Origin: Girardia tigrina
Taxonomy: Eukaryota
Assembly: GCA_001938485.1 (NCBI GenBank)
Contig: MQRK01202609.1
Span: forward strand, 25,827-80,060
DNA length: 54,234 nt
Direction of reading: 5' to 3'
The position numbers and the translations under genes were made by a program. Below, piece by piece: positions 3,647 through 53,139 of this stretch. The first letter of the stretch is position 1. Each line of letters opens with the position of its first letter. The notes below the pieces were generated by a model. The model was not told the DNA's origin. It saw only the letters and a list, made by a program, of their open reading frames with translations, and did no database searches.

Positions 3647-4988
3647 TTAGGTCACTTATTATGTCACACTTCTTTTACCTAATGGAAATGATCAATATTT
3701 ATTTTAAAATTACAGTGATAAATGTCTACAGCTTTTGATCTGTCAACACAATTGCTGTGAGACCGTGTGCTCGATAATTTCTAAAACCTTTTGAAAGCTA
3801 CTGAATCAGTCCATTAAATCAACAAAGCTGTTTCTAAGCATTCAATGAGAGAATGGTTCACCCGCTTCTGAGCTCGCTACTACAATCAGAGCTCATTGAT
3901 GACCGCCTATGGATATTGGTTCGAATCAACTAGCTACAAATAATACTTGAGTTTGCAGAAACATTGATTTGAATATCCAAATCTACCATGTTGAAACACT
4001 TGAAGGTCATAGACATCGGGCCAAAATTGTATTTGTGAGTGCCCCACCAGTCCATTGACGTCCAACGTCAACGTTGTTGTGAACCTACTCTTACTCTACT
4101 ACCGTTAGAGCGTCACTAAAACTAGCTATCTTTAACCATCCAGTGCTAACATTCCGTTTCTAAGACCAACCCCCCACTTTTCTCATCGAATTATCGCAAT
4201 GGCGACTCTGAAAATGACTAATTATTTTTATATTACTCACTGTTATTTTAATGTTACTAATTATTAATAATTAGTTGAAGTACTGCTATGTTCTTTTTTA
4301 CCAAAAAATGTACAATATGAATACAAAGTGTATGAATAAAATAACTTTCTCTGAATTCGGTCTTACAGACGGATGTTAGTACTAATGTTACAAAAATCGT
4401 ATTAGTATTACAGGGTTAATTGTTACTGGTGAAGGGAAGTGGATCACTTAACTGAACATTCTATGCGGGCGATCATGGTTTCAGAAAGTATACAAACCAA
4501 TCGTTAGCCAAAGCTTCACTCTAAAAAGTAATGTTCTTGGCATAATAGAACTGGAAGAAGGTGATCCTGTGTAAATTGTTCCTAACTGACATCAATATTT
4601 CATCTGAAATCTACTGCAAACAGCTTGACTGTTTGACCGTTTAGATCCATCAGAAGCATCTACATTTTAAACCTACTCGCTTTATACATAATAACATCAG
4701 ACCACACGTTGTAGCCTCCAACCATCAAAATCTGTTTGAATTGGGCTGGTAACTTTTCATTTTCCCATTGAGTAGTCAATACCTGGCCACATCCGACTTT
4801 CATGGTTTGTTAACTTCTTCGAATCAAAGTCCGTGATTTTCTACAATAATGACATCAGGAGTTTGTCGGAAAATGCAGATGATGCTTGATTGCAATGGTG
4901 AGTATTGTAGCTATATAATTTATTAAAAAAAATTTATCGTTATTTAATATGTATTTATTGCAAAAAGTCAATAATAATAAGTGAATCG
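3647..4988 (+). mobile_element. Highly decayed mariner (DD34D) element with a ~290-bp insertion
   Basis: Remnant motifs (W)VPHQ at ~4038, IVTGEGKWI, INISSEIYCKQLD, FIHNNIRPH, LATSDFH, CNGEY. Weak TIR core TCACTTATTA at both ends. Boundaries approximate. Confidence 0.65.
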
Positions 4989-5357
4989 AAAAACTAAAAC
5001 AAAAAAATTTACTTGGATATCTTATTCAAAAAGAACGTCTAATACTTGGCAATGAGCTAAACAATTAAAATAAACTGAAACGAAAAGTAAAAAACAAATA
5101 CAAATTAAATTCAAAATTTATACAAAAAATCCAAGCTTTTCCTATCGTTTATCCGAATGTAACTCCAAAAAAATTAATCAGATCCAGTAATTAAAAGAAT
5201 CGATTTTGAGGGAACTAAATAGAATTTTCTGAAAAGGTTTCTGACAAACTATGACACAGAATTTCTTACTTTTTTGGCCTTAAATATTGTTTGTTGACTA
5301 ACTGAATCATATTCATTGCTGTTTATTCAAAGATAACAAAGGTAATTAAATCAATTC

Positions 5358-5458
5358 AAAATGTGGATGCTTCTGATGGATCTAAACGGTTAAACAGTCA
5401 AGCTGGTTGCAGTAGATTTCAGTTGAAATATTGATGTCAGTTGGTAACAATTTACACA
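5358..5458 (-). repeat. Inverted ~100-bp duplicate of the mariner segment 4568-4668
   Basis: Reverse complement matches with only scattered mismatches. Confidence 0.85.
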
Positions 5459-10989: not shown

Positions 10990-13900
10990 TAGAGCTGCAA
11001 ATAATTAATTTATTTTAAAAGTTAACTTTCAAAAATTAACGATTAATCGATTAATTGATCGCTAATTTCCCGCTCAAAACCACAGTAAAGTTTTTAAAAA
11101 TTTGAATTTTTTAAAAAGCTTTAACCTATTTACAAAGAAAACTCACCCTTAAACGCAATTAAATGGAAAAATGCGAACTTTTTTTAAATTAAAAAGAATA
11201 CGTGCGATAGGGTAAAAACATGTTTATTTATCAATATTTCCGTGAAGAAAAAAAGGGTCAGATGTATGTAAATATTTTTTCTTAAAGTAAAGAAACGATA
11301 AGATCTGGTTATGCTTACTATAGAAATACTAATTTATCCGACTATGTCGTAACCGTTTAATCTAAGTTATAATATTATATTTAATCAGCAAATTAGTTAC
11401 TTTACACAATACGAATTAGGCTTTATTAAAATTTACATTGCTTTTCATTTATATCTAAAGTTTAGATTCTAAACACTTTAAAAATGGGTGGTTTATTTGT
11501 ATATTTTAAATTTATACATAATAAGTTATATAATAAGTTGTTATTTTTCTTACGTTTGTTCCATGTTGTATAAAAAAACAAACACTTAAGGTTTTGGTAA
11601 GTTGTTTTCTGTGTAAATTTATACCTTCAGGGGGTCTATTGTGACCTCACACCCTTGAACTCTCAATCAGAAGCTGAAAAATACCTGGTTATGAAGCTTG
11701 GATCTCATACATCCCTAGCCTACAATCCTTGTAACAAGTTAGTTGTGATAATGCTAATTAATTATTAAATAAATATTTAACTTGGAAATTTTTTACGGCT
11801 TTTGGTATATTATCCTTTAATCCAGTTTGAAATAAAAACTCATACTATAAAATTTTTGCAGGGAATTAATGTTTAATTTTAAAAATTAACAAAATTTACT
11901 ATAAAATACTGACAGAAAAAATATTTATATTTTAAAAACGCGTTAATTTTTAATTAAAGTTCTCGGATAACCAACTATGCAGACACAATAGCATGTTTAC
12001 ACTATTTGGCTCAAGTGAAGAACATGTTTTATTAACAATATATCCAGCAGAGCTAAATAACCGTTCACATGGAACAGATGTGACAGGTATGCAATGAACA
12101 GTTTTACCATAGGAACCCAGTTTTGGAAATATATGTTCATTTAATTTCCACCAATGCAATGGATCAACTGATTCACAAACCTTCTTCTCCAATTTATAAC
12201 GCTGGATTTTGTCAGAAACACTATCAACTCCCTGATCAGAATCTGAATCGGATTCCATTAACTTGATATATTTATCTTTAGATTTATACAGAATTTCATT
12301 GGCAATGTTAATATTACTTTGTTCATTAGTCTCCACCTGGTCAGCGTATGCATAGGTTGTTAAATTTTCTTTTATACGTATCCAAACTCTTTCCTTCATA
12401 TCTTCTGTCAGACACTTTAAATTTTTATAACGTGGATCAAGTGCAGTTGCGATTTGTAGACTTTCTATTGATTTTATTTCAACTACACACTTTGTGAAAT
12501 CATCAATTGAAGCAACTTTGAATCTGACTATGTAGCCAAGATCATTATCATTTACAGCCATGTGCTTTGTCAAACACGTCAGCAGGGCAACACACAACTA
12601 CACGAAGCATATTTTTGACCACCAAGCAGAACAGTTGCCTGGCAGAATAAATCTAATACTTTGACATAGTTCAATATTTTATCCCATTCAGAATCTGATA
12701 AATTTGGAATATTAAGGTGATTCCTTTCGCTTGACATGAAGATTGTTATTGCTTTTCTAGCCTGCAGAAGACTTTGTAGCATAATAAGAAGGCTGTTCCA
12801 TCTTGTGGGGACATCATGTTGCAACTTAAGCAATTCAGATTCAGCACAATTTTCTAGTTCAGCGGTTGAAGCTGCACTGTGTTTGAAATGTCCCACAATA
12901 CTTCGACACCTATCAAAAATGTTTTAGTATCCTAGGCTTTAAATCCGATTAGTATACTTAATTGAAGACTGTGTGCCAAACACAGAATATGAACAAAACC
13001 AGTTTTATTAATTGCAGAAACCATGTTTCTTGCATTGTCTGTTACTATAGCTTGAACTTTATTCGTGAAATTCCACTTTTCTGCAAAATTCATATAAAAC
13101 AAAGCAACATTATCAGCATAATAGCGGTTATTAAAATGTATGCATTCAAGAACAATACTTTTTTAACTCCCAGTCCTTGGTTATCCAATGCCCAGTGATT
13201 CCACACTAACTTTCATTTCCAACGGATTTCCAGAAATCTGTTGTTATCGCCAGTTCCTTTGCATTTTAACTGTTTCTTTGACTATTTTTATCTTGTTTTT
13301 ATACAAATTCGCAAGTAATTTGTTAATTATAGGCCTTGCTGGCAGTTTATATTCCGAGTTTTGAAGTGCTATTGTTGGGTTTTTAAATTATTAATAATTA
13401 TCTTTAATTCAATTATTCAATTTTTAAAACACAAATCTTAAATCTTTATGTTTAATCGTAAATCTCTTTTCTTAATTCTTTAATCAATAATCTTTAATCA
13501 ATAATTCTCAATCAATAATCTTTTATCTTTTGATCTGACTCCAATTATTCAGAAAGGTCTTCCAACATANNNNNNNNNNNNNNNNNNNNNNNNNNNNNNN
13601 NNNNNNNNNNNNNNNNNNNNNNNNNNNNNNNNNNNNNNNNNNNNNNNNNNNNNNNNNNNNNNNNNNNNNNNNNNNNNNNNNNNNNNNNNNNNNNNNNNNN
13701 NNNNNNNNNNNNNNNNNNNNNNNNNNNNNNNNNNNNNNNNNNNNNNNNNNNNNNNNNNNNNNNNNNNNNNNNNNNNNNNNNNNNNNNNNNNNNNNNNNNN
13801 NNNNNNNNNNNNNNNNNNNTTCCTCAGCCTTGAAAATTGATGAGATAAAACAAAGAGTAAAATATTTATAATTTTTGATGAAGTAAAACAAATATTTATG

Positions 13901-14899: not shown

Positions 14900-16747
14900 T
14901 TGGCAAAGTAGAGTTCTGTCTGCATAAAGAGTTGATCTCATCATTTGACCCAAATCAACAAACTACATTCTCCAATTAATAGATCTCAACTGAAATCCAT
15001 CATTGGCACTTTACAATTCTTCTCACGTTTCACATCAGAAATGAGTCAAATGGCAGCTCCTCCGCTTTATTTGCTAAGCCCAAGGGTTCCTTTCAAGTGG
15101 ACACCAAAGGAGGATGCTGCTCTTTGATCACTTATATCCAAAATTAACTTGACATCCAATTTGGTATTTTATGACATCAAGAAACCGCTCTTTCTCTCTG
15201 ATAACTCCTCATCCACGGGTTTGGGAGCTGTTCTGAGTCATGACAAAGAAAAGAAACAAATAATACATTGTTCATCACGCACTCTCTCTCCAGCTGAGAA
15301 AAATTATGGTAACATAGAACGTGAAGCGCTGGCTATTATCTTTAGCATCAAAAGATTTCATCAGTATTTGGCAGGCACAATTCTAACTGACCATGCTCCA
15401 CTAAAATTTATATTTAACTCCTCCAGAAACATTCCAGAGAGAATTTCAATGAGACTGCAAAGATGGTGTTTAATTTTGAAATATTACGATTTTGACATTC
15501 AATACATCCGTGGTGAAGAAGTTTTCCGTCCAGATCTTTTCAGCCGTATTCCCGATAGCAAAGACAGGGAAGAAAAGCAAGAAGTGGATGACATTTTTTT
15601 TTGCTCAACTGTCATTGGAAGACAAATTTCCTATTTTCAATGACTTGGAAGCTGAAACCAAATCATCTTTATTTAAAACGGTCATTCATTAGGTTCAACG
15701 CGGTTGGCCTCACATAATTAAGAAGAAATTTATTTCATACTCATCAAACAAACACGAATATATTGTGGTAAAGGGTAGCCTACACCGAGGATATAAAGTG
15801 GTAGTTCCACCTTCACTTCGTCAAGCTGTTCTTCGATTCTTTCATGAATTTTATCCAGGTATTATTAGTATGCGTCAACTCATGCGCCAGTTCGTTTTGT
15901 GGCCGGGAATGGATGATGATATACAAAAATTAATCAGCCAGTGTGATCCATGTGCAAAGTCTCAACAATCGAGAGTAAATTACTCCCTTTCTGCGTGGCC
16001 GGAGTCAAGTTAATTCTTCCAACGTTTGTTCATCGACTTATTCTTCTTTCATGACAAGAGTTTCCTTATCCTAATTGATCAGTTCTTTAACTTTGTAGAC
16101 ATTCCATTAAAGCAGTTATCTTCCAATCAAATCATCAGTGCTCTACAAAAGACATTCTGCTAATTGGTCTTCCCGATATTATTGTGTGTGATAATGGAAA
16201 ATAATTTGTCTCCAAGGAATTTAAATCTTGCCTTTCAAGTTGCAATATTGACCTCATGTTAACTCCAACGTACCATTCACCAAGCACTGGAAAACCTGAA
16301 CGAGCAATAAGGAGTGCAAAACTATTCTTATCCAATAATGTGGCTGAAATGGGTTCTGTGGAATACTGTTTACATCAGTTTTGCATCGTCAACAATTTCT
16401 TCTCTAGCTCAAACGGCACAATTTCCTCAACGGAATATTTGAAACACTCTCCTAAAGTTTTAATGAGGAAAGCACTACTGTCCAATAAGCAAGGCATAAC
16501 GGAAGTGGCTATTCCACAAACATAAATGAGAACGACCATAGTCCCAATATCAGGTGGTCGACTAGCTCACAATGGGGGCGTGTTCCACGAGGAAGCCCGA
16601 AGTAGACGTGTTCGTCAACCAAACTCTCGTTATTTCAATAAAAACTTTGTAAATTAATTTTGGGGGATGTTGTATCATATGTTTCATTACCGTTTGTTTA
16701 ATGTTTCAAAAAATAAATAATTCTTCAACTTTGAATTTGATACCACA
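14900..16747 (+). mobile_element. Ty3/Gypsy 3' portion: RT end, RNase H, integrase, PPT and 80-bp 3' LTR
   Basis: Motifs AEKNYGNIEREALAIIF, TDHAPL, RLQRWCLIL, integrase zinc-finger region and core (CDNG, TPTYHSPSTG). GGGGGA PPT, then an LTR TGTTGTATC...GATACCACA (16668-16747) with inverted ends. Confidence 0.88.
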
Positions 16748-18498: not shown

Positions 18499-19302
18499 TT
18501 AATTTTCGTTTGGCTTTTCTTTGATCAAACTCATATCAATCTTTCTTCTTGGAGTACTGAAATCGCCTGACGGGGGATTATCGGTAGAATTCGATGATAA
18601 ATTTCCTTCAATAATCTCTTCAACTTCATTTCCAACATTGTCGTCATCAACGTCCTCTTCATCGACTTCATCATCGTCTTCTTCGTCGTCATGTGGGTAA
18701 TCAACTTCATATTCAGACTCGTCTTCCTCTACATCTTCATCGTCGATTTCACTTCCATAGTCATCGAAATTCCCCTCTTCGTTGTCATATTCACATGCGT
18801 CTTCCTCATCAAATTCACTATTACTTACATTATCGTGTGATAAATGTGACTTGGAATAACTTTTCAAGAATGTATTTCTGACATTTTCCTCATCATTTGG
18901 AGATATATTTCGATCAAAGAATTCTAAAGCCTTTCGTGAGCTTGCAGAAAAGGAATGCGAATGTTTCCTTCGACATCCGTTCAAGTACGACTCGTCGCGT
19001 CTACTGCTAAAACTTATCGGATTTTTCGTCGAATATGAAGGTGATATTAGTGTTTTCAAATCGTTATTTGAAAGACATTTTCGTGTCAATGTCAAATCTC
19101 TCGATGCAATCAACTCCTTCAAATAAGGAGACGTGAACATGCAATTGAGAAAACGTTTTTTAGCAACTATATCTATTGTGTCCAAGTTGGCACTTTTTCT
19201 TCGTTTATGTTTGAAATAATTTTTCTTCGGAACATTTTGACTGATTTCTGGCTGGTATTGATCATTATTATAGCAACCAATGTTTTGTATTGAATCATCC
19301 AT
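18499..19302 (-). CDS. Hypothetical 267-aa protein with a basic NLS-like patch and a long Asp/Glu tract
   Basis: Intact 804-nt ATG-to-stop ORF. KHKRRKS patch and a ~70-aa acidic low-complexity region. No TE motif recognised. Confidence 0.65.
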   Translation of the reverse strand: MDDSIQNIGCYNNDQYQPEISQNVPKKNYFKHKRRKSANLDTIDIVAKKRFLNCMFTSPYLKELIASRDLTLTRKCLSNNDLKTLISPSYSTKNPISFSSRRDESYLNGCRRKHSHSFSASSRKALEFFDRNISPNDEENVRNTFLKSYSKSHLSHDNVSNSEFDEEDACEYDNEEGNFDDYGSEIDDEDVEEDESEYEVDYPHDDEEDDDEVDEEDVDDDNVGNEVEEIIEGNLSSNSTDNPPSGDFSTPRRKIDMSLIKEKPNEN

Positions 19303-19499
19303 GGACGGACGTGTAGAAATTTATTATTAAGACTTTAACCAATTTGAAATTTAATTTAATCAATTTTATTATATTACAATTTTATGATATTGTATTTAAT
19401 CCTTATTTATTTATAGTAGATTGAATTTTATTGTCAGAAAACGACAATTAATAAAAATATATAATAAACCTGTTTAATTTTTAATGGGGCGCATACAGT

Positions 19500-20500
19500 T
19501 AGGTATGGCAAAAATCCCGGAAAAATTCAATTCCGGGATTTCGAGAGTGAAAATGATTAACGGGATTCATGTGAAAACTTTAGTAACATTATAATGGGTG
19601 TCATAATTCAGATACAACCGTTTGAAACTTATGAAACACTAAAAATATATATTTAACCACAAATATAATTAAAATAATTCATTGATTAAATAACATAACA
19701 TACATAATTTTGAAAAATAATCTAAATAATTTAATAACTTTTATTTTTTAAAATGCCACCTTAAAAGCATAAAGCATCAATATTTTTACCGTTTAGTCGA
19801 GTTCGATTTTTTGAGCAAAGAAGACTAGCCGCTGAGAATGCTCGTTCACACTCCACACTTGTTGGTTTAATAGATAGTAAATAATCATATACTTTTTGAA
19901 GGTGGTCACCCCTTGTGCCTCCAGTTTCAAATAACAAAATTTCTTTATGAATTTTAGAAATTGTACTTTCCACTCTTGTAGGTAGTTTTCGTATTGACTT
20001 TAATCCTTTTTTCATAGCTTCATTTAATTGTTCACTAATTGTTTTAAAGCTAATACAACATTCGTCAGCTGATAAAATCTGGTTCTGAATATCACTACAA
20101 ATGTCTGATGCAATTATTGTATCTGTCGCATTTATACACTTTAACAGGTTCAACAGCATTTTTTCATATTCATTGTTTTTCATCTTAAGCGAATCATTTA
20201 TACTGAGATCTAAAAATGCTTTTTTAAGACAATTTTTAAACTTGTCAAATCTTTCAAGCATTAGCAACAAGGTGTTCCATCTGGTTTTGCAATCCATAAT
20301 TAATTGAATGACATTTACAAACTCAATTTTACGTACATCTTTAAATAATTGTCATTTCTGGTTGGAGATTTCTTGAAAAAAATTACGATTTTTCTGACCT
20401 TTGTGAAAACAGGTCTAATCATTTGGTGAGTATTCATAACTTCTCTGAAAAATGAACCATTCAAATTCTGAAAACAATCTTCGTCTTCAGAATCACAGTC
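19500..20500 (-). mobile_element. hAT 3' fragment
   Basis: Motifs DCKTRWNTLLLMLERF and IKPTSVECERAFSAAS...RTRL. Terminus TAGGTATGGCAAAAATCCCGG with CGGGAT subterminal repeats. Confidence 0.8.
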
Positions 20501-21004
20501 ACTAGTGTTGGGGAATGTGTTTGTTTGTTCTGATTTTGTTTTTATTTTATCAAAAAAAGTTTTGAATAATAATAGAATATTATTATTCGTTTTTTTATTT
20601 ATATTTTAAAAATAAGTAAATAAAAAATATCATATTATTATTTAAAATATTATATTATTATTTATATATAAAAGTACAAATCTTAATTAATTACATTAAA
20701 GGTCTAGAGGCCAAAGTATTAAATTTTCGAAGAATTTAGTGATTCGGCAAAAGTCAAAGTTCGGTTAGCAGTTTAAAGTAAAGGACATAAGAGACATAAA
20801 AGGATGTTCAAAAGAATCAATAACTGATAATTTTTAAATTTTTTAAGGTAAATTTTTTTTTAATTTTTTTGATAAAACTTAAATTTTTTTAAGATCCTTG
20901 CAGAAACTTTAAATTTTTAAGAACTAATTGGATCTAAAGAATTAATTTATAACTTCTAAACTTTGTTGAGTGCAAGCAATTCCGCGATTTGTAATAAATT
21001 TTTT

Positions 21005-21100
21005 TGTGAACGAGAAATAAGGATTTATTTCAATAACAAGATTTACAAACCGTTCTCCGAATTATGATTATTTAAACAAGTTTTCGACGTTTCCACTACA
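21005..21100 (-). repeat. 3' LTR of the Gypsy element
   Basis: TGTAGTGG...GTTCACA on the minus strand, preceded by the PPT, repeated at 27908. Confidence 0.9.
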
Positions 21101-21149
21101 CTCTCCCTTGCCTTCAAGGCACAAACGCATACGCCTTCTGTGCAATGGA

Positions 21150-23780
21150 GAGTCTCTCTCGGATCTGGTTCTGTCACTCCTGTGAACAAATAATCTGCAA
21201 ATCTCGCTGGCTGAACGGTCGCTCGATTCGGCCTCGGTTGCCGCACCTCATTGGATTGAGTCTGACTGTTTTTAATGGCATCCATTCTCCTATTCAATGT
21301 CTGCTCGTCCTCCTCGTCTGAGCTATCACTACAGGCGCCTGCATTCTTCGATCTAGGGACAACTCGCAAACTCGATATTCCCTCTGCTGTCATTGTTGAC
21401 CAACTCTCTGGCACACGCCTGATGTGTGACACATGGAACGGGATCCCGTCAATCTCGACTTGATGGGGTGGGCGGAATCCGCTCACTACTGCTCGTTTCC
21501 ACTGCGTCGTGCACGTCGCGCTCACCTGTTTCACGAACATGACATCCCAAACTTGTAGATCCCTCGTCTGCACAATTTAAGTGCCCTTTGAAAGTTGGTC
21601 CGCGAAATCGACTGGTAGTGGCAGTCGCCGCCGTTATGCAAACACTGTGGACGCCGAAATCACATCCGTTGAATTTGGAGTGGCGTTGTACCACGCAACT
21701 ATATCGTTGACCGGCTTCCTACTTCGCGCCGCCATGCGCTTGATGATCCGATAGCAGCATTCAGCGATATCGTTTCCTCTGGGTCGATTTGCACACCAAA
21801 ACCGCATTTCGACACCCATTTCGGAAAGCAATCGTCGGATTGCCTCTCAAAAATGTGTCATGAAATTATCCAGTAGAAGCTCTTGTGGTGGGCCGAATTC
21901 ATTGAACACCGCTTTCAGAGTGGCAAACAAATATCCATCGCATTCTGAAGCGATCCTTCTCCATACTTCGAACCGGTTCGGTCCGCAATCGACCAGTGTC
22001 ATGTACTTTCCCTCAGATGTGTGTGTCACGTCCATGGCGAGCCGCTTCCATGTTTCTTTGACGCCAAGCTCGCCTTTCTCCCACTTTACTTGTGACGGAT
22101 CGATTAATGCGCTCTGAAGACATCATTTTCCCACCGCCTGCACCTACTTCTCAGTTATTCGCCCTGGACCCCACATATTACTCTCCAAGAACATCATCCG
22201 CTTCACTCCGAAATGGTGGATAGCATGGAGCGCCTGCAGACGATCTATCGGCTGCCCCTTTCCCTCCATCGTTACTGCCGCCACATTCGGTCGATCTTTT
22301 GATGCTATCACCCAGTCACTAGGCACGCGAGTGAGGCCATCTGCTCGGTTCTCTGTTGAACTGAACAATTTGCACTCCACTTGAAGCTTCTCCTCTTCGA
22401 TAGTCTGCTTGATTGTGCAGATGCGTCGCTTTACGAGCAGCTCACTCATCCCACTGGATCTAACCGGTCCATCGCCCCTGGTAGCGTTTGTTGCCTTTAT
22501 TGCCTCATTAGCCGCTTCAAGTTCTGCCAGGTTAATGTGAGCGGCGTCATCCTCCTTACGAAGCCACGAAGCATCCTCGACCACCGCTTCCCCTATAACG
22601 GTCGCGATCGAACTTGCATCACATCACACTTGACCGTATTTTCGGTCGGGTACTTCCCACTTGTCGTTCACCGGATCTTCGTTCGCGAGCCGTTCCGCCA
22701 ATGTCTGCGCAATGTCAACTACACGTGGTTCTATTGTATCGTCCTAACCGCCTCTACAGGCCAGCCTTTTTAAGAAACTACATGCCAGTCTCAGCCAACC
22801 ACACATCTGCAGCTTCCGTAATTTGTGTATCCGACCCGAGCACGTGGTCCATGATACGCCTCATAATTTTTGGGGCCGCGTTCAATCCAAAGCCCAGTCG
22901 CGTCAGGCACCACATCTTCCCCTCGTGGTGGATCACTTAATAGGGCCATAGTCTCGAGTCCACCTTAATTTGCAGATATGCTCACCTCAAATCGATTATC
23001 TCGAGCGATGACCCCATCTTCCGCCATTTGCGCAGCTTTTCAGCGCACACCAGGCTTTCTGTGGTGTGGCTGGACACGAACTCGTTTAAGGCTATGTAGT
23101 CTAGCACCGGTCGCATCTTCCCCTTTGCCGCCTGAATCACCGCCATCAGAGGCAAAATTGCCTTTGCTTAACCATTAAACGGGATGAGGCACCCGTTTTT
23201 CTTCCATTCGGACAACTCCTGGATCACATCTTCTTCGTACTGTTTGGCCGAAGCGTATGCGGCCTCTCCCCCCAAGCAACTCTGGTGACTCCTCACCACT
23301 CTTCCACTTCCATAATGCGGTTGTCAAACTCGACAATAAAATCAGAATCGTCAATCCGCATGCGTCCCGGTTGCTTCGCTCTGCCCACCGCTGCCTGATA
23401 TTCAATCTGTCCAAGTTTTGGGGTAACACATCTACCGGGCACCTACACGCCCCAAGTTGGTTAATCGCGTCCATGCCGAAAAGAATCCCCGTCCTCGACT
23501 CGGCAACTTCTAGTACCACTAGAACACGACATTCGATCCGCTTGCCGCTGCACTCAATCGACAGGGTCGCTTTAAATTGCACGACCACCGCCGACCCGTA
23601 CATCATCCAAACAACTTCTTCAACTCAATCCAGCTTTGCCGACGGGATCATCGCCTTCGCTATGACTGACGTCGAACATCCTGTGTCGACCCTTGCCCTT
23701 GCAGTCCTTCCACACACGATCACAGGAACGAATAGAAGTCGCGCGTCACCGCAACCAGGCTCCCCAACCGCGCGATAGTG
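21150..23780 (-). pseudogene. Gypsy pol (protease, partly deleted RT, RNase H, integrase)
   Basis: Motifs ARVDTGCS, LDYIALN, AYLQI, LTRLGFGLNAAPKIM, EDASWLR...HINLAELEA, ENRADGLTR, MDVTH...LVDCGP...LLLDN. Many frameshifts; YxDD not seen. Confidence 0.88.
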
Positions 23781-23788
23781 AGGACCCG

Positions 23789-24545
23789 CTATTCGTTTCC
23801 CGCTCGGTCAGTTTTTAGGCGCGGGTACCTTACAATGCGGCCCACCCGACCGCAGCTGAAGCATCTGCTTTCCCGTTCATTATCTTGGTTCGCGGTTCGA
23901 TCGGTTGTATTATGGGCACTCCGCCTACCTGTCGCACATTCACGCGCCAAATGCCCAATCCCGCCGCAACAATAACATCTCGGTTCTCCTGTATCGGGCG
24001 ACGGGAACGGTGGTGGCCGATCCAATGGCCATGCAGCTGCCGCTGTCTCATCAGTGGGTTCACGTCTTGCCTTGACATGCACTCGAGCCCATCGGACCAA
24101 GGTTTCCAGATCCAACGTTTTGTTGAGCGCTTCGGCCTCCACACTTCTCATGGCTTCCTCGAGCAGCCCATTTATGAAGGCCTGAGCCACAAAAGCCTCC
24201 CAGTGGCCTCTGTTGCCACAGATGACAGCCGCTTACCGCTTCAAATCAGCCATGAAAACATCTACGCCCTCACCGGGTGCAAGCTGTCGGGATGTACAAC
24301 TCACCCATGATAGCTTCAGGCTTTGGGCGAACGCTTCTGTAAGTGCGGCTGTGCTCTTCTCAAAATCTTGCCGCATCTAGTTACTGAATTCACGGAATAC
24401 GACTGATGCCTCGCCCATCAGTGCAAGTGACAGCATCACCAGCTTGTTCTCTTTGAGCGTATCCGCGCACTCGCGATATCGCTCGATCCAAATCGAAAAA
24501 TCCCCCGAGCCCGTCATACGCCGGTCCGATTTTCAGAGTCTTCAT
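23789..24545 (-). pseudogene. Gypsy gag with CCHC zinc knuckles
   Basis: MKTLKIGPAYDG.../FSIWIERY..., knuckle CYCCGGIGHLAREC and a degenerate second knuckle. Confidence 0.85.
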
Positions 24546-24799
24546 CAAAAAGCCGCGATAGCCTGTTGTCACGACCCTTTCGAGTGAAAACATTTTTAAA
24601 ATCTCCCAGTGATTGTTAAGGGTCAATCACAACCCACGTTAAATTTATTTCGATTCTAACGCCATTATATATAGGGTCGGACGCCTCCTATCTTGCCTGA
24701 CATCTGCCTAGCAGTGCCAAGCTCAAGGGGCCTTCGGGTTCAGCTAAAGGTAGGATAGGCTGTGGGCCCCCCCACCTGGGTCAGCATCAATAGGGGATG

Positions 24800-26103
24800 A
24801 TTTCAATTTGTACAGTTGAGTAATTTTCTGCTAATTACATCGCTTATGTCTGCCCGTAGAGGTGTGCTGACATTATATATTTGAAAGGTTAGTTTATCGT
24901 AAGAATTAGAGTTCATAATAAAGTCGTCGTCATTTCGGCCATCTTATCTCTGTTCTAATCCAGCTTACTACGTTTTCTGGAAACCTCTCCCTGGCACTCT
25001 TGTCTAGAATAATTTTTCCTCATAATATTAAATCCTAGTATCGTTTAGCAGAGGCATCTGATCATATTACATCTAATTCGTAGTTCAGTCATTAAATTTG
25101 TATAGAGTCTAAAAGGAAATCCCTATCTAAATTCGTTGATTTTCTCCGGAAACCTAATTTCAAATATCAACCATATCTTATAAATTTTTATTGATTTAGT
25201 AAACGATATTTTATATTTATCAAACAACCAAATGATATTCACAACTTTAAAAAATGGTAAATAAATATCATGTTATTCTAGCAATCTTAAATTAAACTTT
25301 CAGCCGATCGTTCTGACATCTCCAGTCACTATGAAAACAATAAGGATTGTGTAAATAATTACTTCGAAGTTTTCTATTTATTTTAATTATTTACAGGACT
25401 CGATCGTGAAATTTATGGAATAAAATTTTTAAATTTGATAAAATAACATTAATTGGATAAAATTTACGAAATTTCGCAGAAAAAAATTTCTTTTTTTTTA
25501 TAATATCATAAGTTTCGCTACATATTCGTCCAAATTACTACAATTTTATCATAATGATCCAATTAATCAGGTAATCGAATTCTGCAAAAAGTCGCATGAA
25601 AATTATAAAAATTTATTTAATGAATAAAAATCATGAAAGTAATTAATAGTAAAATCTATATTATATACAAAAATTTTACGTTCAAAAAAATAGGTTTGTT
25701 TTAATATTCCAATCCTATCCTCGAGGTCGCGCCACCAAATCAAACCCCGTCGGATTTTATCATCATGTTTCTGGCGGAACGGAGTTTCTCTCGACTCTAT
25801 TGCCGTTTGATTAATCTAGGCGACTCGCGATTCCACGCTGTCTGGAGTCCACTCAATACGAGCACCTCAGTTAAATAACTTAATGGTAACGGTCTCTCAT
25901 CGACGATGATTAAGATACTGCGACCTTCATTGATTTATTCAGGCAATCGATAATTACTCCGGGGCATCTACGATGCAGGACGACGACGGCGGCTGTTGAG
26001 ACTTAACGATTTGGAACTCGTGGCCGTCCGGACTAAACCGGTGAAGGAGAATAACCCATCGGCACTTAAACTCGGTTAGATAATATTATATTCGATCAAT
26101 AAA
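24800..26103 (+). pseudogene. Putative decayed multi-exon gene inside the insertion
   Basis: GT-AG intron candidates at 25257-25303, 25351-25396, 25639-25693 (weaker at 24820-24859 and 24888-24963). GC-rich last exon and AATAAA at ~26098. No continuous ORF. Confidence 0.4.
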
Positions 26104-26309
26104 TACCTATAACTGAATTAATTAATAGAAAAGGATAAGAAGGATTAAATGTAAACTGTAATTCAATTTAAAATAAATTCAACTTGAAACATTTATTTAA
26201 ATTTTTAAAACCAAAATGAAATTCGTCAATATAAAATGAATACAATATACTAATTTAATTTACTATAATAGTGTTCGGAGGAGTGTTAAATCTCGGGTCA
26301 ATCGCTAGT

Positions 26310-26960
26310 TCACGGGTCGTTCTTCGTCGGCTATCTCGATAATAAGTCGGGGTACTCAGTCACGGTTCTGCACTGGAATTGGCTGTCTCAAGTCGCGGCT
26401 GTGGCCCTCTTTTTCGATTTCGTCACCGTCTATCACCAATGAATCCCGCTCTGTGGCTGATCGTTGGTGTTTCCCCTTGGTTATTTGACTTGCTTCTTTC
26501 TCCTGGCTATCGTTGGATTGCGCTACTGCGGTTCGTTGCTCAAATCGATTTTCTTGAAGGTACGTTAATACATCGTCTCAAGCGTCTATCAAAATTGTGT
26601 GACTTAGTTAACCACTTCTGTGGTCAACCTCTTGGAAAAAAAATTGGCATTGTGCCAAATTTGTCCGTGTAATGTTCTAATAAAATATCTGCGAGTCTCG
26701 GTGAGGTATAAAAGTTGTCTGTGGTAAGACAATGTCCTAAATGCAATATGGGTTTCATCAGATGCATAACAATTTGCCCGAATCCAGTTCGGGCAAATCA
26801 CTGTGTCAGCAAAATACCTACCCGAATGGTATTCGGGCAAATCACAGAAGTGGTTGACTTTTCTTTTATATTCTAGATATGCTATCCTGTTGTCTTCTTT
26901 TGTCCAACCAGATCTCGCCAACCCACTGTCTGAAATTTCTGCAATGCTAGTTGGTTATGC
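26310..26960 (-). pseudogene. Frameshifted ORF of unknown function inside the insertion
   Basis: 105-aa ORF (26604-26921) with Cys/His residues, followed in another frame by a ~73-aa hydrophilic stretch (DDVLTYLQENRFEQ...). Confidence 0.4.
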
Positions 26961-27063
26961 TGGTAAGTGTGTTTCTAAAAAATTTTCGAAATTTTAAAAC
27001 TTTTTTACTTTATTATAAGATCCAGTGCTCGTGTGTCTTTACACACTCACAAACTTCTCCAAC

Positions 27064-27855
27064 ATGCCTGCTGCTGATTCATGGATGATTCACATGGAAT
27101 CATCAGCTAACGATTATTTTCGGATTCTGGGTTGACTCATGGTAAAATTAATTAATTTTCTATTTTTCTTAATTAATTGTTTGATCTTTCAGGGGCTGTA
27201 ACTTTTCTCGAGGAGATCCTACGGCCTCGCTGGTTTTGCCCACGGATTACCCGCGCGAAGATCTTTCGTGGGAGGGTCGGTCGACCCTGTGGCACCATCG
27301 GATAATTCAGTAGGTGAGTTTGTTGTTTTCTTTCTGATTTTTAATTAATTTTTTCTCTTTAAGAGTGAATAACTTCTTTCAGGGATCCGCTGTTGTCTCA
27401 CACGTTCTGCCCATGGATCCGTCTCGCGAGGGGCTACGTGGAGGGGGTTGGATGACCTCTCAGCTCCAATAGGTAATTCGGTAAGCGACTTTATTAATTT
27501 TTGGTTTTATTTTAATTAATTTTTTTCTTTCAAGGTTTACTATCTCTACTCGCGGGTTCTTCAAACATCGAGGGGTCATTCTCGCGGATTCCCCGCAGTG
27601 TTTCTGCCTGTGGCGGGGCGGTTGTTCGCCCTCTTTAATCGGGTAAGTTTTAATTCGACTCTGTCTCGTCTTTCTTTATGTGTTTCTAGTTCCCATGCGC
27701 ATCTCCAGTGTCTCGCTGCTCTACGAGGGGATCGGGGTCATCTTTGCCGTTCGAATTGGTGTTATTATTTAAATATATGTATTATTTGTAAGGGATTCCT
27801 TTGTTTTCTTTATGTTTGCTGCATGTTGTGTTTGGTGATTTGTGGGTTCGCGTAG
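27064..27855 (+). pseudogene. Five-exon gene with tandemly duplicated exons inside the insertion
   Basis: TATAA at ~27014 and caacATG at 27064. Introns 27142-27192, 27310-27363, 27481-27534, 27643-27689. Internal exons 117/117/108 nt. One frame has a single stop across exons 2-5; a frameshift is needed in exon 1. Confidence 0.65.
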
Positions 27856-27907
27856 AATGTGTTTCTGTTCGTAACAATGTTTTGTGATGTATTTCGGACC
27901 GCAACAC

Positions 27908-28011
27908 TGTGAACGAGAATAATGAAAATAAGGATTTATTTCTATAACAAGATTTAAAAACCGTTCGCCGAATTCTGATTATTTAAACAAGTTTTCGACG
28001 TTTCTACTAAA
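27908..28011 (-). repeat. 5' LTR of the Gypsy element
   Basis: Near-identical to 21005-21100, with an 8-bp indel and a few substitutions. Confidence 0.9.
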
Positions 28012-29369
28012 ATGTCGCGATGATACAAAGTTTGAATGTTCGACAATTAGGGATATATATATTAAAATTTTATTTGGAAAAATATTTAATGAAGTTTTAA
28101 ATAATTTTTACTAATTTTTGTTCTGTATAATTTTTAACACAACGTATATTAATATTTTTTAAATATTTTATAATTTGTTTTACAAAATCAATTGAATAAA
28201 TAAATAAAAATAGTTATTTAAGCAATTAAAAAATTGACTTAGCTGAAAACTTAATTCCAAAAATAATTTTGAATAAAGAGAAGCCAGTGAAATTTGCAGT
28301 AATCCTTAAAGAATTTGAAGTAACATTTTATTATTGTTCTTTCCTCTTAATAATCAAGTATCCTGTAAAGGAGAACACGATTAAAACAATTGTCATTTTT
28401 CACCGTTATTGCTCGTACAAACGTATTGACATTGAAGAACTGTGTGTTCAGCGTTTATTAATTATTGTTGGATTGTTATTTAGATTTGTACTACAAGCGG
28501 TAATTGATAATTGAAGATTGAAACATTTATTTGAAGCTGTGTTTAAATTTGTGTTATTAAAAATAAAAGTTATTAAGAGAATTTGTGTTCACTTGTTCAT
28601 ATATTTGTGTTGGAAGTGCCTACTAAATTATTGGAGTCAGATATAAAGTTGCGATCAAAATATTGATAATAAACTTTGAATATTTTGAATACCCAACACT
28701 AAATTTTTATAAACGGAAGCCGTGTCTGTTATTGGGATTAATTTTTGGATCGAGAAATTAATTTGATTTTGACGGAGTTAATTTGAAATTTTAAATCGAG
28801 GTAAAGGATTTTACAATTATAAAATTTAGTAATATTTTTCTTTTTTTTAACGGCTTAAATTTAATTGGAAATATTTTTAATTTAAGTTTAACTTAAAATT
28901 ATATTATAAGAATTTTCCATAATAAAAGTCCAAAAAATAGATAATGTTTATTTTTATGACACAATCAAATAATGCTCGTCTAAAATTAATTACACTGATT
29001 GATTTAAACAATCTCAGGAGTTATTATATATTCAGGATCCTTTGATATAATATGATATTGCTATAAATAATTATATGTATTTTAATTTATAAACATATAG
29101 TTATTAATTATTCTCACATATATAACTATTAATATTTTGAAATTATATTTCTTAAACTGACCTACTTTGTTTGATAAGTGACACTTATCAACAAAAAATT
29201 TATTAGAATAAGTATTTTCCTCAGTGAGATATATTCCATATTTATAAATATAGATATTATTTTATTATTTGTGAATTGTTCATAATAAATTATTTTTTAC
29301 TTTTAAAAACAATTTTTGTGTTCTTCCTCATTGTTCAAAATTCAAATCATCTATTCTAAGATCAATAAT

Positions 29370-33320: not shown

Positions 33321-33425
33321 TATCGTCAAATGAATTCGAGTTATCGTCAGATGAATTCGAGTTATCGTCAAATGAATCTGAGCTATCGTCAAATGAATTC
33401 GAGTTATCGTCAAATGAATTCGAGT
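33321..33425. repeat. Minisatellite, 5 x 21 bp (TATCGTCAAATGAATTCGAGT)
   Basis: Five head-to-tail copies with few substitutions. Confidence 0.95.
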
Positions 33426-34058
33426 CTGTGAAAAGAAATATACTAATACGTTTTGAGCCGTTTATTCTGAATTTTTTATAGTATCTGTAAAATCGCGTGG
33501 CGTAATAAAACAAGCAAAATCGTGAGAAAGATAATGGTTACACAAAGCTGAGCACCACGTGGTAAAACTTTGGACGCGTACGGTAATGTGCGTTCAACAA
33601 AAGAATATGCGTGAGAAAGGTGCGTGGCTCAAAATTCTCTGTGAGTGAAGTACGCGTGAGAGAATGCGCAGTTGTGTATCGCTTGATTAAAAGAATAAGG
33701 TACGCATGACCACGCAGCAGTAAAGGACGCATCATGCGTGAAGACTTATCATAATAATAATAATTTTTTTTAAATAAATAATAAGATATTTAATTTAAAT
33801 TATTTTATATAGAAATATAAATAATAAATAAATACATGCTAAAAAATAACACAAAAATACTATAATATGTTAAAAATAACACAAAAATATTATAATAAAA
33901 ATTCACAATGTTTCTATAAACAATCAATCAACAACAACAAAAAAAGTCTATATTTATATTACCCCAACAAAATTATTTCATTAGTTTTCGTTTTACGTGA
34001 TTTTGTGACCGAATATTTTTGAAATATGATAGAACAAAAGTCGATCATCGTTAAGAAA

Positions 34059-34390
34059 ATGTCATCTAACATCACAAGTAATCTTACAATCAGCGGTGAA
34101 CGATTTACCGGTGACAATGTTCGTCGACAAAACACATTAGCCATCCAAACGATCGCCAATATCGTCAAAACGAGTCTCGGTCCAGTCGGTCTCAATAAAA
34201 TGCTCGTCGACGACGAGGGCGAAGTGACAATCAGCAATAACGGCGCGACAATTCAGAAACTAGTCGAAATCGAACACCCGGTGGCGAAAATTCTCGTCGA
34301 ACTCGCCCAACTCCAAGACAAAGAAGTTTGCGACGGAACGACCTCCGTGGTGATAATCGCCGCCGAATTGTTGAAACTCGTCGAAGAACA
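34059..34390 (+). pseudogene. TCP1: T-complex protein 1 subunit alpha (CCT1) 5' fragment
   Basis: IANIVKTSLGPVGLNKMLVDD...GATI...EIEHPVAKILVELAQLQDKEVCDGTTSVVIIAAELLK. Similarity ends after ~110 aa and conserved nucleotide-binding residues are altered. Confidence 0.85.
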
Positions 34391-35244
34391 AATCAAATCG
34401 ATATTTTTTCTATGTGATCTCGCGGTGTTATCAAATTTCAGAAACAAAAGATCATGTGAGATCTATCCCAATAATCTCAAATTGTCTATTGATGGTTCAG
34501 CTCTGTAACAGTACTCTAATTCTTAGGTTAATGTCTTTGTTTCGCATGCATGGTATGTCCTTGCTTTGAGTTTCTTTATACAATGACATCCGAGTTGACC
34601 TTCAGCTCCACACAATGAACATTTTAAATATAAACACTCTCTTCTGACATGTCCGAACCCTGTGAAAAAGATAACCATCATATGAAGCCTCGTTATACTG
34701 TACCATTTCCGGTTATTTCTATTAAAGGTAATCTCGAGCGTCTGAAGCCAGCATTCGGTTTTTCCAAAGACGAGAACCACCCCGAACTCCGTTCTTCTCC
34801 AAGGGGGCTATGTGGTGATGTCATTCCTCACCACATTCAATAATATTGAACTTCAATGATGTCACATCTCATGACATCACTAGAGTTCAAATTCAGGTGA
34901 TTTAATGTCATGACATCACCGGAATATGGAATTGCATAAACTGACCCATTGCCTTAATATAAAAGATCGACGATTTTCCAATTGAATTGGTTAGCAAACC
35001 CTAATCAATATTTTTTATAATAAATTTTATTATCTAGTTTGCGTTCTTTATATATATATATATATATTCTTAATTTAAAATATATGCATGTATAATTGAA
35101 AATATACTTATGTATAATTTAAAATACTATAATAGTAGAATAATTCATAATTTTGAAATTATTAGATTATCAACAAATATAAATTATTTAAACATTCGTG
35201 TTTAACTGAAGTATTTGTTACTCAAATCAGCTGATTCAAAAAAC

Positions 35245-38616: not shown

Positions 38617-41274
38617 GGGGCACGAAAATTAAGTCCCGAAAAATTAAATCTCTGAAATTAAAATCTTGTCATTATTTTATGTTTCAGAAAATTAAATCTC
38701 AGACAATTATTTTTTGTAAAACTTATATTTTTATTACAATTTAAAATTTGTAAAATAAAATTTAAAAATAAATGAAAAATCTAATAAAGTTATAAAAAAA
38801 TAAATAAAATTTGTTTTGAATTTTGTTTATAGTCGCAATTGGAGTTTTATCATTTAGTTTGTAATAAACGTGTTTTGAATTTATTTGGATTAAACGTTTC
38901 TGATGGATTCTTCGGATGACGATGTCAAATGTTGGGAAGACGATGAATTGCAAAATTACAATTTTTTATGTTTTATGTGTTCCAATTCGTTCATGGAATT
39001 AAAACTGATGTTCGATCTAATTTCAAAGACCAACAGCAATCGATCGACACGGGAGTCAGTATGACGAGAGCCGGGTTCATCAAGAGACTTTCGAGTCAGC
39101 AAAAATTAATTTTTTATTCCCCTCAACCCCAAAACCCTCCACTCGCAACGTGGTGCTGCAGCCACGCTGCGCATGCTCTGTCATCACCGACTTCAGTTGC
39201 AACAGATTTTGAACAGGTAGAATTTCGAGCAATTCAAGAAGCATGGATACTTAAATTCATGGATTTTTTTTTCATTTGAATCAAACAACGTGCCGAAAAG
39301 TTGGAATTTTGTTTTGTACATGCATTATGTCTCATGTCTCAAGTCTCTCTATGATCACAATAATGATTTTCGTCTTTGATGCAAAATGATCACAGCTTTG
39401 GCTTTTTTCCCATTGATAAACTTTATCACGCTTTTAAGGCTCTTGTTCAAGCGTTTCCAGATGATATCAAAGTGTTTGCAAATTGGCTTGAGGATAATTA
39501 CTTTGGCCACATTATTGGTCGCAGTAGTCGGGCTCAATGAAAGTGAACCATTGTTCTCGCCACAGATCTGGTAAGTATTACGTGGTGCGATCCATAAAGT
39601 CCTTAGACTCGACAAGAAAGCAAAGTCCAATCAACTTTATTTTTTCAGAATCAGTACATGACATCAAAGTAAATCATTTCTCGATGTATGAGCCGTATAC
39701 ATCAACACACTTGCGCCAGCGAGCAACAAGCTCAGAGAACGCATTTTTGCAAAAATTGGGAGGCAAAGAATTGAGAATATCAAGGACTTTCCCTTTGAGG
39801 ATATCAACTGAATGAAAGTGGACACCTTTCAAATATTTCTTTAGGTGTTTAAACAACGCAAAATTTCTTGGAGCTAGGTCAGGGCTATAGGGGGTGGGAA
39901 AAAAACTGAAAGCCACAGTCATCCACAGCAGTCAAAGTTGCTCGCTAAGTTGAATGGGTGCATTGTCTTGAAGGAGCCACAATGGGAACCCTCTTGGCTT
40001 CCTACTAGACTTTCTCACATCGCGAAGTAATTCAACATAATACTCACTATTCAGTGTAAGTCCTTTCTCAAGGAAATTAATTTTAATAATGCCATGGGAA
40101 TCCAAGAACACAGTCAGCATTGCTGCTCACTTGTGCGAGGTGTCGCTTCTAAGTTTTCGGGGAGCACTTTCACAGGGGAAACACCACTCAGAAGATTGAC
40201 GCTTGCTCTCAGGCACATAAAAGCTCACCGGGGTTTCATCTTGTGTAACGATGTTGTTGATGAAGCGATTACCATGAGTGCGAAGCAACTCCAAATAAGC
40301 AGTGCAACACTGCAAACGTTTGTCGCACATTTCACCGGATAGGAATCGGGGAACAAAACGTGAACACAGTTTGCGAACTCCAAATGATTGCAGAATATCA
40401 TATGTAGAATGGTAGCTGATGGATAGACGCTGTGTAAGTTCATGGATGCTTATTCATCTCTCTTCCGACACAATCTTCATGCACAAATCACTTTTTCCGG
40501 GTAAAATTTCCCACGGTCGTCCTGATCTCTCAGCATCAAAAACGGATTGTCGGCCATGTTTTAAGTCTCTGATCTAATTATACACTGTTGCACGTGATGG
40601 GCACTGGTCACCGTAAGGTTCCTGCAATTGCTGCAAAATATCGCAGCTTTTAGTATAGCACAGGAGCAGAAATTTTATCACTCTGCGATATTCGACGTTA
40701 CTGATGTATTTTATTTTTTAGGAACTTGCATCGTTGTGTCTTGGACCACAACGATCTAACAAATGACTTCAGAATCTGCTAATAAACGATTGCAAAAGAA
40801 GCTCTTCTTAGACTATCTGGTTGGGCTGAAAGTAGCTCAAGCCACTCGCGACAAAGAATATAAAGAATTTATTGGTGGCCTACATCGATGTCAAAAACGT
40901 CGAAAGTATCAAAAAGAGGATTCCAGCAATTGTTGAAGGCGGATTTGGAGAGGGTGGCAAGCGCACAATCGTTGAATACTTACACGGTCTTGTACAAAAT
41001 TTTAAAATGGACCAATGACTTATGTTTAAAAATAATAAATATGTTGCTACGTAAATTGTTATTTTTTACTTCTTTAATTTTTTTAAAAATTTACTGGATT
41101 TTTTAAAATTTTTATAATTTTATTAGATTTTTCATTTATTTTTAAAATTTATTTTACAAATTTTAAATTGTTTTAAAAATATAAGTTTTAAAAAAAATAA
41201 TTGTCTGAGATTTAATTTTCTGAAGCTTAAAGTAATGAGAAAATTTTAATTTCTAGACTTAAATCTCTTGCTCC
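38617..41274 (+). mobile_element. Mutator-like element (MULE) with ~180-bp TIRs, interrupted by a mariner
   Basis: Long inverted termini (e.g. TTCAGAAAATTAAATCTCAGACAATTATTTTT and its reverse complement) with AATTAATT-type flanks. Peptides TDFE..., MITALAF, WLEDNYFG, PLFSPQIW, and VEYLHGLVQNF after the mariner. Confidence 0.8.
39581..40887 (-). mobile_element. mariner (DD34D-type) element nested in the MULE
   Basis: Motifs IVTQDETPV, LNSEYY, LLQDNAP, PYSPDLAP, RWRKCVDVYGSYIEK. TIRs degenerate. Confidence 0.85.
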
Positions 41275-52502: not shown

Positions 52503-53139
52503 GTTACAATGTCTCCTTTGTGTATACAATAAATGAAATGATTCAAGTAATCCTAAGTTCTTCAAAAATGTACAGTAGATCGTTTTTGTCTCATGAGTTT
52601 TGTCATCTGTGCGCACAAAACTCCATATATAGTCACCCATCAGGGCTTCGTCCCAACGTCCATGATATCGCTTCTCCATCACCGTAATGTCCTGGTGGAA
52701 CCTCTCACCGTGCTCTTCGCTAACATCTCTATGATTTGGTCTAAAGAATTCCAAGTGAGAGTGCAGATAATGCAGCTTTGTTGACATTCTACAACCCAAA
52801 TCTTGGTAGCTGTTGAGTAATTCTTCAATCAGTTCCTTATAATTATCCGCTCTGTTGTTGCCAAAAATATTAGAAACTACATGCTCGTAAGCAGTCCAGA
52901 TTCTCTTTTCTTTTTCTTTCATTTTACTCTCTAGACTTTCTGATTCGAACATCTGTCTCACTTGTGGTTCAACAGACACAACTGTTGAAACCTAAGCTTC
53001 TGATAGATTGGGAAACAATGACCTGATCTATTTAAGGGTTTCACCACTATGATTTAGGGCTGTTACAAATTGTTTAATCAATTCTAATTTTATATGCAGT
53101 GGAGTTAAAAAATTTTTGTCAGCAGAAACAAGAGCAACA

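Follow-up and report, generated by a model that had tools for sequence, protein, structure and literature searches.

The window, by which we mean the whole stretch of 54,234 nucleotides of Girardia tigrina DNA analyzed here, contains between positions 27010 and 27860 a chain of short introns that the initial annotation had read as an antisense accessory-protein gene in a putative LTR. This raises the questions of which element the chain belongs to, whether it is spliced, and whether selection has kept a protein or the signals by which the RNA would be processed.

A solo LTR of a Burro-type element

We searched the genome with positions 27000–27900. Of 942 first-look candidates 40 were scored, and 103 loci with long matches were reduced to 56 non-redundant copies, which are top BLAST hits, biased to the subfamily of the window copy and related to each other. 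Homology among the genomic copies of the LTR stops abruptly at positions 24567 and 27906. The sequence between them (minus strand, 3,340 bp including a secondary insertion of 243 bp) has sharp TGT...ACA ends and is flanked by CTGT at 24563–24566 and 27907–27910, read from the sequence as a 4-bp target-site duplication (TSD). The 4-bp duplications of other solo copies are CATT, CACT, and ATAC (n = 3). In addition, a contig of sequencing run X5 joins position 24563 to position 27908, which corresponds to the empty site without the solo LTR. We also considered that 27010–27860 could be the LTR or leader of the neighboring element, a decayed short-LTR Ty3/Gypsy element on the minus strand (21005–28012, LTRs of approximately 95 to 105 bp near 21005–21100 and 27908–28012), and rejected this because of the homology ends at 24567 and 27906 and the TSD. 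The solo LTR was inserted at the end of the 5' LTR of this neighbor, at the junction with its primer-binding region. The LTR is that of a Burro-type, env-bearing Ty3/Gypsy element, nested in the neighboring short-LTR gypsy element. The latter carries 2 CCHC-type knuckles.

A tract resembling a primer-binding site (PBS), which we take to be of the tRNA-Pro type, adjoins the 24567-type end on the minus strand in 11 of 48 distinct ends, and internal ORFs then follow. Because the tract lies on this side, the minus strand is the sense strand of the parent element, which makes the introns antisense to it. A second LTR behind a polypurine tract was not found (none of 67 ends was purine-rich, in short contigs that are interrupted within pol), the antisense cassette was never observed beside pol, and the retrieved loci included neither a complete element nor a 3' LTR. 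In most copies the beginning of the PBS tract occurs once more within U5 (plus-strand sequence GAGCCCCCA), and the window copy has an 8-nt deletion there (24600–24615 region).

On the sense (minus) strand, a predicted TATA-like element (24665–24671) and a predicted AATAAA (24644–24649) are conserved in the aligned LTR ends. If they function as their sequences suggest, their position in the final approximately 110 bp places R and U5 there, so that approximately 3.2 kb of the LTR would be U3. The antisense modules sit in this U3, at its far end. LTR subfamilies (L092, L102, L104, L105, L110, and C231567) have the R-proximal 240 bp and the antisense cassette in common; their U3 middles cannot be aligned with each other, yet the pattern of GC-rich and AT-rich blocks is equal. 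LTR lengths range from less than 1 kb, through internal deletions, to 3.4 kb. The 243-bp insertion of the window copy (26612–26854) is MITE-like, has 11-bp terminal inverted repeats, and is private to this copy among the aligned ones; relatives of it occur elsewhere in the genome.

Behind the PBS, the parent element contains approximately 8 small ORFs, Gag, long unannotated stretches, a weak Bcl-xL-like match, and a fusion glycoprotein-protease-reverse transcriptase (RT) region. The fusion glycoprotein (PF24664, E = 4e-81), the protease, and RVT_1 share a single open stretch of 1,506 amino acids, in which env is read in one frame with its neighbors, between gag and pol; C231567 has the region split into 4 open stretches. 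Gag, at the N-terminus of the polyprotein, matches Ty3_capsid (E = 1.5e-6) as well as zf-CCHC (E = 0.0012), each falling slightly short of the Pfam cut-off, and the only match for a BCL2-like domain before env is a weak Bcl-xL match (E = 0.018) at the expected place. This weak stretch (L179:5321–5731, minus strand) and another that looks ubiquitin-like by eye (L179:6501–6845, minus strand) both precede env. The small sense ORFs between PBS and gag (105–160 amino acids) are separated by AT-rich spacers and can be seen at L142:8212–9560 and in C231567 and C247461 (L178, L180, L184, L186). A homolog search with the parent env region returned 1 unnamed protein.

The giant Ty3/Gypsy element Burro of planarians is described with accessory ORFs, a Gag with CCHC, a BCL2-like stretch, a mononegavirus-type fusion glycoprotein, protease, and RT (PMC6431247). 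The parent element matches this description in its order: accessory ORFs upstream, Gag with CCHC, and env in frame with protease and RT, with the weak Bcl-xL match at the place of the BCL2-like stretch. Unlike in Burro, MATH, BIR, and ankyrin domains, as well as dUTPase-like domains, gave no match at E ≤ 0.01 in the 13 parent ORFs scanned, a set leaving out one stretch of 271 amino acids; the accessory domain set is described as varying between species (PMC6431247). C231567 contains approximately 17 kb from the PBS into RT plus a 3-kb LTR; Burro elements are longer than 30 kb. The section on Burro in PMC6431247 mentions neither antisense nor intron structure in the LTR.

Elsewhere in the window we noted part of a TCP-1/CCT chaperonin gene without introns (34023–34508, plus strand; PF00118, E = 2.5e-31), which may be a processed pseudogene, and hAT transposase C-terminal fragments together with an RT-RNase H fragment at 11950–12597, 19761–20351 (minus strand), and 15128–15643 (plus strand). 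Transposase-like ORFs at 50360–52991 had no Pfam match, and neither had an open frame of 273 amino acids with a long acidic tract (18499–19320, minus strand), possibly a host exon. There are also five 21-bp tandem repeats, and 155-bp and 104-bp terminal-inverted-repeat pairs that are probable DNA transposons (33321–33425; 38654–41253; 4568–5458).

The antisense exon-intron chain and its processing signals

The initial annotation had described 4 AT-rich GT-AG introns of 51, 54, 54, and 47 nt, the first 3 of which hold TTAATTAATT. We confirmed both the motif and the introns, here called introns 1 to 4 (27142–27192, 27310–27363, 27481–27534, and 27643–27689), and found 2 further introns upstream (intron -1, 26560–26876, and intron 0, 26963–27018/19), which gives 6 in total. 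Intron GC content is 0.16–0.32 versus 0.54–0.57 in the exons. A simple short-intron finder placed 4 of its 8 plus-strand hits in the whole 54-kb window within 27019–27534, and of 12 LTR copies 11 had hits on the plus strand and 2 on the minus strand. This concentration of hits indicates that the intron chain exceeds chance.

On the plus strand, the chain can be followed from an upstream exon (26272–26559) that has no conserved frame and is marked by a contig joint 26560–26878 in run X1. Intron -1 is 74 nt long when the MITE-like insertion it contains is left aside; its GT, the first donor of the chain, is kept less well than any other site (16 of 24 copies), while its acceptor AG stays conserved (35/38, including a site shifted by 4 nt). 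Then follow exon -1 (26877–26962, 86 nt) and intron 0 (26963–27018, 56 nt; GT 35/39, AG 38/42), where the window copy has AA, with AG one base further. Exon 1 (27019–27141) is 123 nt long, or 113 nt in a large subfamily, and carries a conserved TGACTCA (27133–27139) at its end. Intron 1 has GT in 50 of 50 copies, AG in 48 of 51, and a TTAAT branch-point-like motif. The 3 modules are exon 2 (27193–27309), with the palindrome GGGTCGGTCGACC(C) at 27274, exon 3 (27364–27480), and exon 4 (27535–27642). Their lengths of 117, 117, and 108 nt and their mutual homology were as first described; the modules are 52–61% identical. Exon 2 is 117 nt long in 41 of 49 copies and exon 3 in 38 of 53, and exon 4 measures 101–112 nt in other copies. 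Lengths in multiples of 3, which the annotation had also pointed out, are not maintained in exon 4 (15/40 copies) or exon 1 (17/42). The remaining splice sites are retained at similar frequencies: GT 46/53 and AG 48/53 in intron 2, GT 50/53 and AG 41/43 (including a 1-nt register shift) in intron 3, and GT 36/39 and AG 31/33 in intron 4. The alternative intron 2 donor at 27314 is GT in 31 of 53 copies, versus 46 of 53 for the donor at 27310.

The last exon (27690–27800) contains a predicted poly(A) signal, AATATA (27772–27777), which would set its 3' end, and is followed by a GU-rich tract (27791–27860, 79% G+T) downstream of the signal. Among 60 matches near LTR ends the hexamer reads AATATA in 27, AATAAA in 12, and AATACA in 5, and the remainder are partly non-homologous. 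We take these 3 forms, of which AATAAA and AATACA belong to other subfamilies, to be poly(A)-signal variants. The predicted end lies approximately 130 nt inside the U3 edge, and the antisense unit is probably polyadenylated at its own signal.

We then compared the chain with contigs from 4 of 8 sequencing runs, which are probably RNA, although none is recorded as such; runs X1 to X3 come from one sample and X5 from a second study, and the contigs give no strand, start, end, or level. Contigs of X1 skip introns -1, 0, 1, and 4 exactly, introns 1 and 4 as GT..AG, and contigs of X3, from the same sample, skip intron 0 exactly. Four X1 contigs, with a loose end, continue from the 3' edge of exon 2 into the 5' edge of exon 3, and the joints observed use the first acceptor of exon 2. 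The expected spliced junctions were thus recovered as exact joints for introns -1, 0, 1, and 4 and as the exon 2-exon 3 join, in unstranded contigs. For intron 3 no joint was present among the listed contig joints, the comparison skipping the repeats at 27505–27531, and for X5 no exact intron joint was listed. The other contig joints are not canonical, and some pieces run unspliced through introns -1, 2, and 4. The U3 stretch 24848–25079 lacks contig cover and was excluded as evidence.

Contig joints of this kind could also come from intron-less DNA copies. We rejected this origin because no such genomic copy was found: the genome contains the exon 1-exon 2 junction motif 0 times and the unspliced motif 66 times, and for 5 junction patterns in all fetched loci abutting exons were found in 0 cases versus 9–37 intron-bearing ones. 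Splicing in RNA is the simplest reading of the joints, with the strand deduced solely from GT-AG. Altogether, the contig joints, the side of the PBS, and the ends of the solo LTR bear out the proposal of a spliced gene lying antisense within an LTR. The annotation had further suggested that the introns survive retrotransposition because they are antisense to the element RNA. We accept this; the PBS side fixes the orientation, and the sense RNA that is copied by reverse transcription would never lose introns of the antisense strand.

Conservation of the splice sites was then evaluated. GT and AG of introns 0 to 4 are retained in approximately 85–100% of the copies, and the 10 splice-site Gs are 0.90–1.00 conserved versus a mean of 0.835 over 188 other G columns (p = 0.02, in copies that are related, so that the counts are not independent). 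Changes shared by subfamilies affect 2 of the 10 splice-site Gs versus 56% of the other G columns. In a subfamily that is approximately 67–70% identical and has one full module fewer, donors are kept in 18/20, 21/21 (intron 1), and 15/18 copies and acceptors in 15/16, 19/21, 18/21, and 13/18. The introns are overall better conserved than the exons, so that an AT-biased mutation process may inflate splice-site conservation, which weakens this test of constraint. We nevertheless consider it likely that the processing signals, splice sites and poly(A) signal alike, were selected.

The modules could instead be ordinary U3 enhancer repeats, in which DNA motifs are selected and an A-rich sense strand provides T-rich tracts on the antisense strand, splicing being a by-product. 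U3 is the usual site of enhancers, and the TGACTCA that ends exon 1, which we take to be an AP-1-type site, is kept in 41 of 50 copies and in 17 of 21 of the distant subfamily (variant TGAGTCA). The palindrome recurs in each module, and a similar GGGTCGG adjoins the TATA element. However, enhancer repeats leave unexplained the 10 conserved GT/AG sites on one strand, the branch-point-like motifs, the intron lengths of 47–56 nt, and a poly(A) hexamer that varies mostly among known variants. Enhancer and splicing functions may also coexist. We regard enhancer repeats as an improbable explanation of the chain.

Coding capacity of the exons

The translations quoted by the initial annotation, with a single internal stop (in exon 3) and a Cys-rich tail, are present in the window copy, and they had been taken for an accessory protein with repeats of approximately 39 amino acids and perhaps a membrane anchor. 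In that frame, 51 of 54 copies are closed by a stop at codon 33 of exon 2, and none of the 35 copies covering exons 2 to 4 is open and in frame. The near-open frame is specific to the window copy, which is one of 3 without the exon 2 stop and whose exon 3 stop is private (1/53). Exon 1 (113 or 123 nt) and exon 4 (101–112 nt) differ between subfamilies by frame-shifting indels, and the last exon offers between 1 and 79 codons to the first stop. The hydrophobic Cys-rich tail turned out to be the translation of the poly(A) signal AATATA at 27772 and the GU-rich tract.

Selection on codons was measured by counting variants common to at least 3 copies against the commonest codon of each column. The purifying selection expected of an open spliced frame was not seen: in the frame of the annotation the ratios were 0.77, 0.84, and 1.61, and approximately 0.9 when pooled, i.e., near 1. 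Across 42 exon/frame tests (6 frames, 7 exons) dN/dS ranged from 0.55 to 1.66 and none was convincing; the lowest p value (0.044) belonged to a minus-strand frame with 6 stop columns. Coding was rejected in every frame tested. As a control, 3 of the small sense ORFs of the parent element, which have no convincing Pfam match and are approximately 3 times longer than one exon, gave dN/dS values of 0.12, 0.26, and 0.53 with the same method (p ≤ 0.003), indicating purifying selection. Two further candidates were rejected. A hydrophobic ORF upstream, with its ATG near 26440, has a 1-nt subfamily indel right behind the ATG and 114–122 nt to the donor. A sense-strand ORF across exon -1 is open in 32 of 38 copies, yet its dN/dS is 0.87.

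The accessory protein is therefore largely refuted, and we give it hardly any credence. That the window copy reads exons 2 to 4 with one stop, that exons 2 and 3 are mostly 117 nt long, that exon 3 is open in this frame in 31 of 38 full-length copies, and that coding antisense genes are described in other LTR elements (PMC7264820) stands against the exon 2 stop, the absence of any open copy, the dN/dS values, the variable last exon, and the lack of a Pfam match for the exon peptides.

The stop in exon 2 could mark the end of a short peptide of about 27 to 55 amino acids. It alternates between TAG (30) and TAA (21), exon 1 ends with an ATG in 41 of 50 copies, and 41 of 51 have a second AG in exon 2, 19 nt from its start. 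The dN/dS of 0.77 (p = 0.19) speaks against such a peptide, as do the 10-nt indel in exon 1, which shifts the frame between subfamilies, and ACG in place of the ATG in 6 copies of one clade. Moreover, the frame of the distant subfamily is shifted relative to the conserved palindrome, and the observed contig joints use the first acceptor rather than the second. We consider the peptide very unlikely.

A conserved RNA fold in the exons was unsupported (z scores between -0.3 and -1.6, and no exon with more than 2 compensatory pairs), and an Rfam scan of 20900–28200 gave 0 matches at E ≤ 1. The exons keep no conserved protein, and the chain is, with high probability, a non-coding spliced antisense unit.

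A putative splice-and-stop cassette

What could such a unit do for the element? We propose, at about even chances, that it acts as a splice-and-stop cassette, whose own poly(A) end would confine antisense transcription to U3. Antisense transcripts might arise in the variable U3 middle, from the R-proximal promoter, or from host sequence that lies beyond the 3' LTR. The conserved acceptors would catch this transcript, which would be spliced and then polyadenylated approximately 130 nt before the U3 edge; at the 3' LTR, the antisense RNA would thus end before env and pol. The product would leave as an ordinary short spliced RNA and not as a long RNA complementary to the coding region, from which piRNA silencing is usually fed. 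Reverse transcription would copy the sense RNA, which retains the antisense introns, and tandem duplication of one intron+exon unit of approximately 171 bp would have set the number of modules, which is lower in the distant subfamily. A weak first donor together with a kept acceptor is expected if the upstream input varies, and we count it in favor of splice-and-stop.

The spliced antisense RNA could itself be the effector, in the manner of HeT-A/TART or BLV AS1/AS2: it would pair with genomic RNA at the U3 end, or feed piRNA or chromatin silencing, and thereby limit the element. All structural evidence for a spliced non-coding unit fits this equally well, the antisense RNAs of HeT-A and TART are described as spliced, non-coding, and tied to small-RNA control (PMC2615633, PMC1636488), and planarian transposon piRNAs are reported to be mostly antisense (PMC8532177). 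However, the exons are less conserved than the introns and have no conserved fold, splicing would break the complementarity into blocks of at most 120 nt, and self-silencing would be costly to an element with at least hundreds of copies. We hold an effector RNA to be possible but unlikely.

The closest likeness is with HeT-A and TART, whose antisense transcripts are described as spliced, with TART introns of 53–104 nt, no long ORF, and splice sites that are more conserved than their surroundings (PMC2615633, PMC3235214, PMC1636488). Like those RNAs, the unit found here is antisense, lies in a terminal non-coding or repeat region, has several short introns and no conserved ORF, and keeps its splice sites across diverged subfamilies. 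HeT-A and TART are non-LTR telomeric elements, whereas this unit is in the U3 of an env-bearing LTR element; hence it works alike without being a member of that group. A tandemly duplicated intron+exon module and a conserved antisense poly(A) signal within the repeat, both present here, do not appear in the descriptions of HeT-A and TART that we compared. The retention of introns on the antisense strand of HeT-A and TART has been called enigmatic (PMC2615633).

In retroviruses, the antisense RNAs AS1/AS2 of BLV and hbz of HTLV-1 arise from the 3' LTR and are described as spliced and polyadenylated, the BLV forms being probably non-coding (PMC10186651). Those RNAs start in the LTR and extend into the internal region, whereas here the 6 introns and the predicted end lie within U3. 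Because the cassette is wholly inside U3, every solo LTR carries the complete unit. Plant aORF-3R and Botrytis brtn are also antisense units of Ty3/Gypsy elements, but they are described as coding and located between pol and the 3' LTR (PMC7264820), whereas the Burro-type unit is non-coding and in the LTR. The conserved frame under purifying selection that defines aORF-type genes was not detected in any of the exon/frame tests, in which the controls pass. The TE-antisense lncRNAs of Blumeria hordei are likewise spliced, non-coding, and antisense to transposons; they are described per locus (PMC10648671), whereas this unit is inherited family-wide as part of the LTR. In the literature covered, outside Grohme et al. 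2018 (which may describe Burro LTRs), no LTR was described as enclosing an antisense unit with several introns.

A more far-reaching proposal, which we put forward tentatively and judge improbable as a whole, is that every LTR of Burro-type endogenous retroviruses is a purpose-built antisense gene trap, with duplicated intron+exon modules and a poly(A) site, which would intercept antisense transcripts ahead of gag-env-pol and convert them into a short spliced RNA, serving as a putative cis-acting defense against piRNA silencing. The family offers a cleaner case than HeT-A and TART: the whole unit and its predicted end are in one LTR, with many copies, diverged subfamilies, and a varying number of modules, and a control within the element shows that the exons are non-coding, whereas splice sites and poly(A) signal are retained. 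If the unit does terminate antisense transcription, it would be a new cis strategy against small-RNA silencing. If the gene trap is true, hundreds of ready-made multi-exon lncRNA ends would have been seeded across the host genome. Either way, each solo LTR puts a multi-exon antisense 3' end into the genome of the host.
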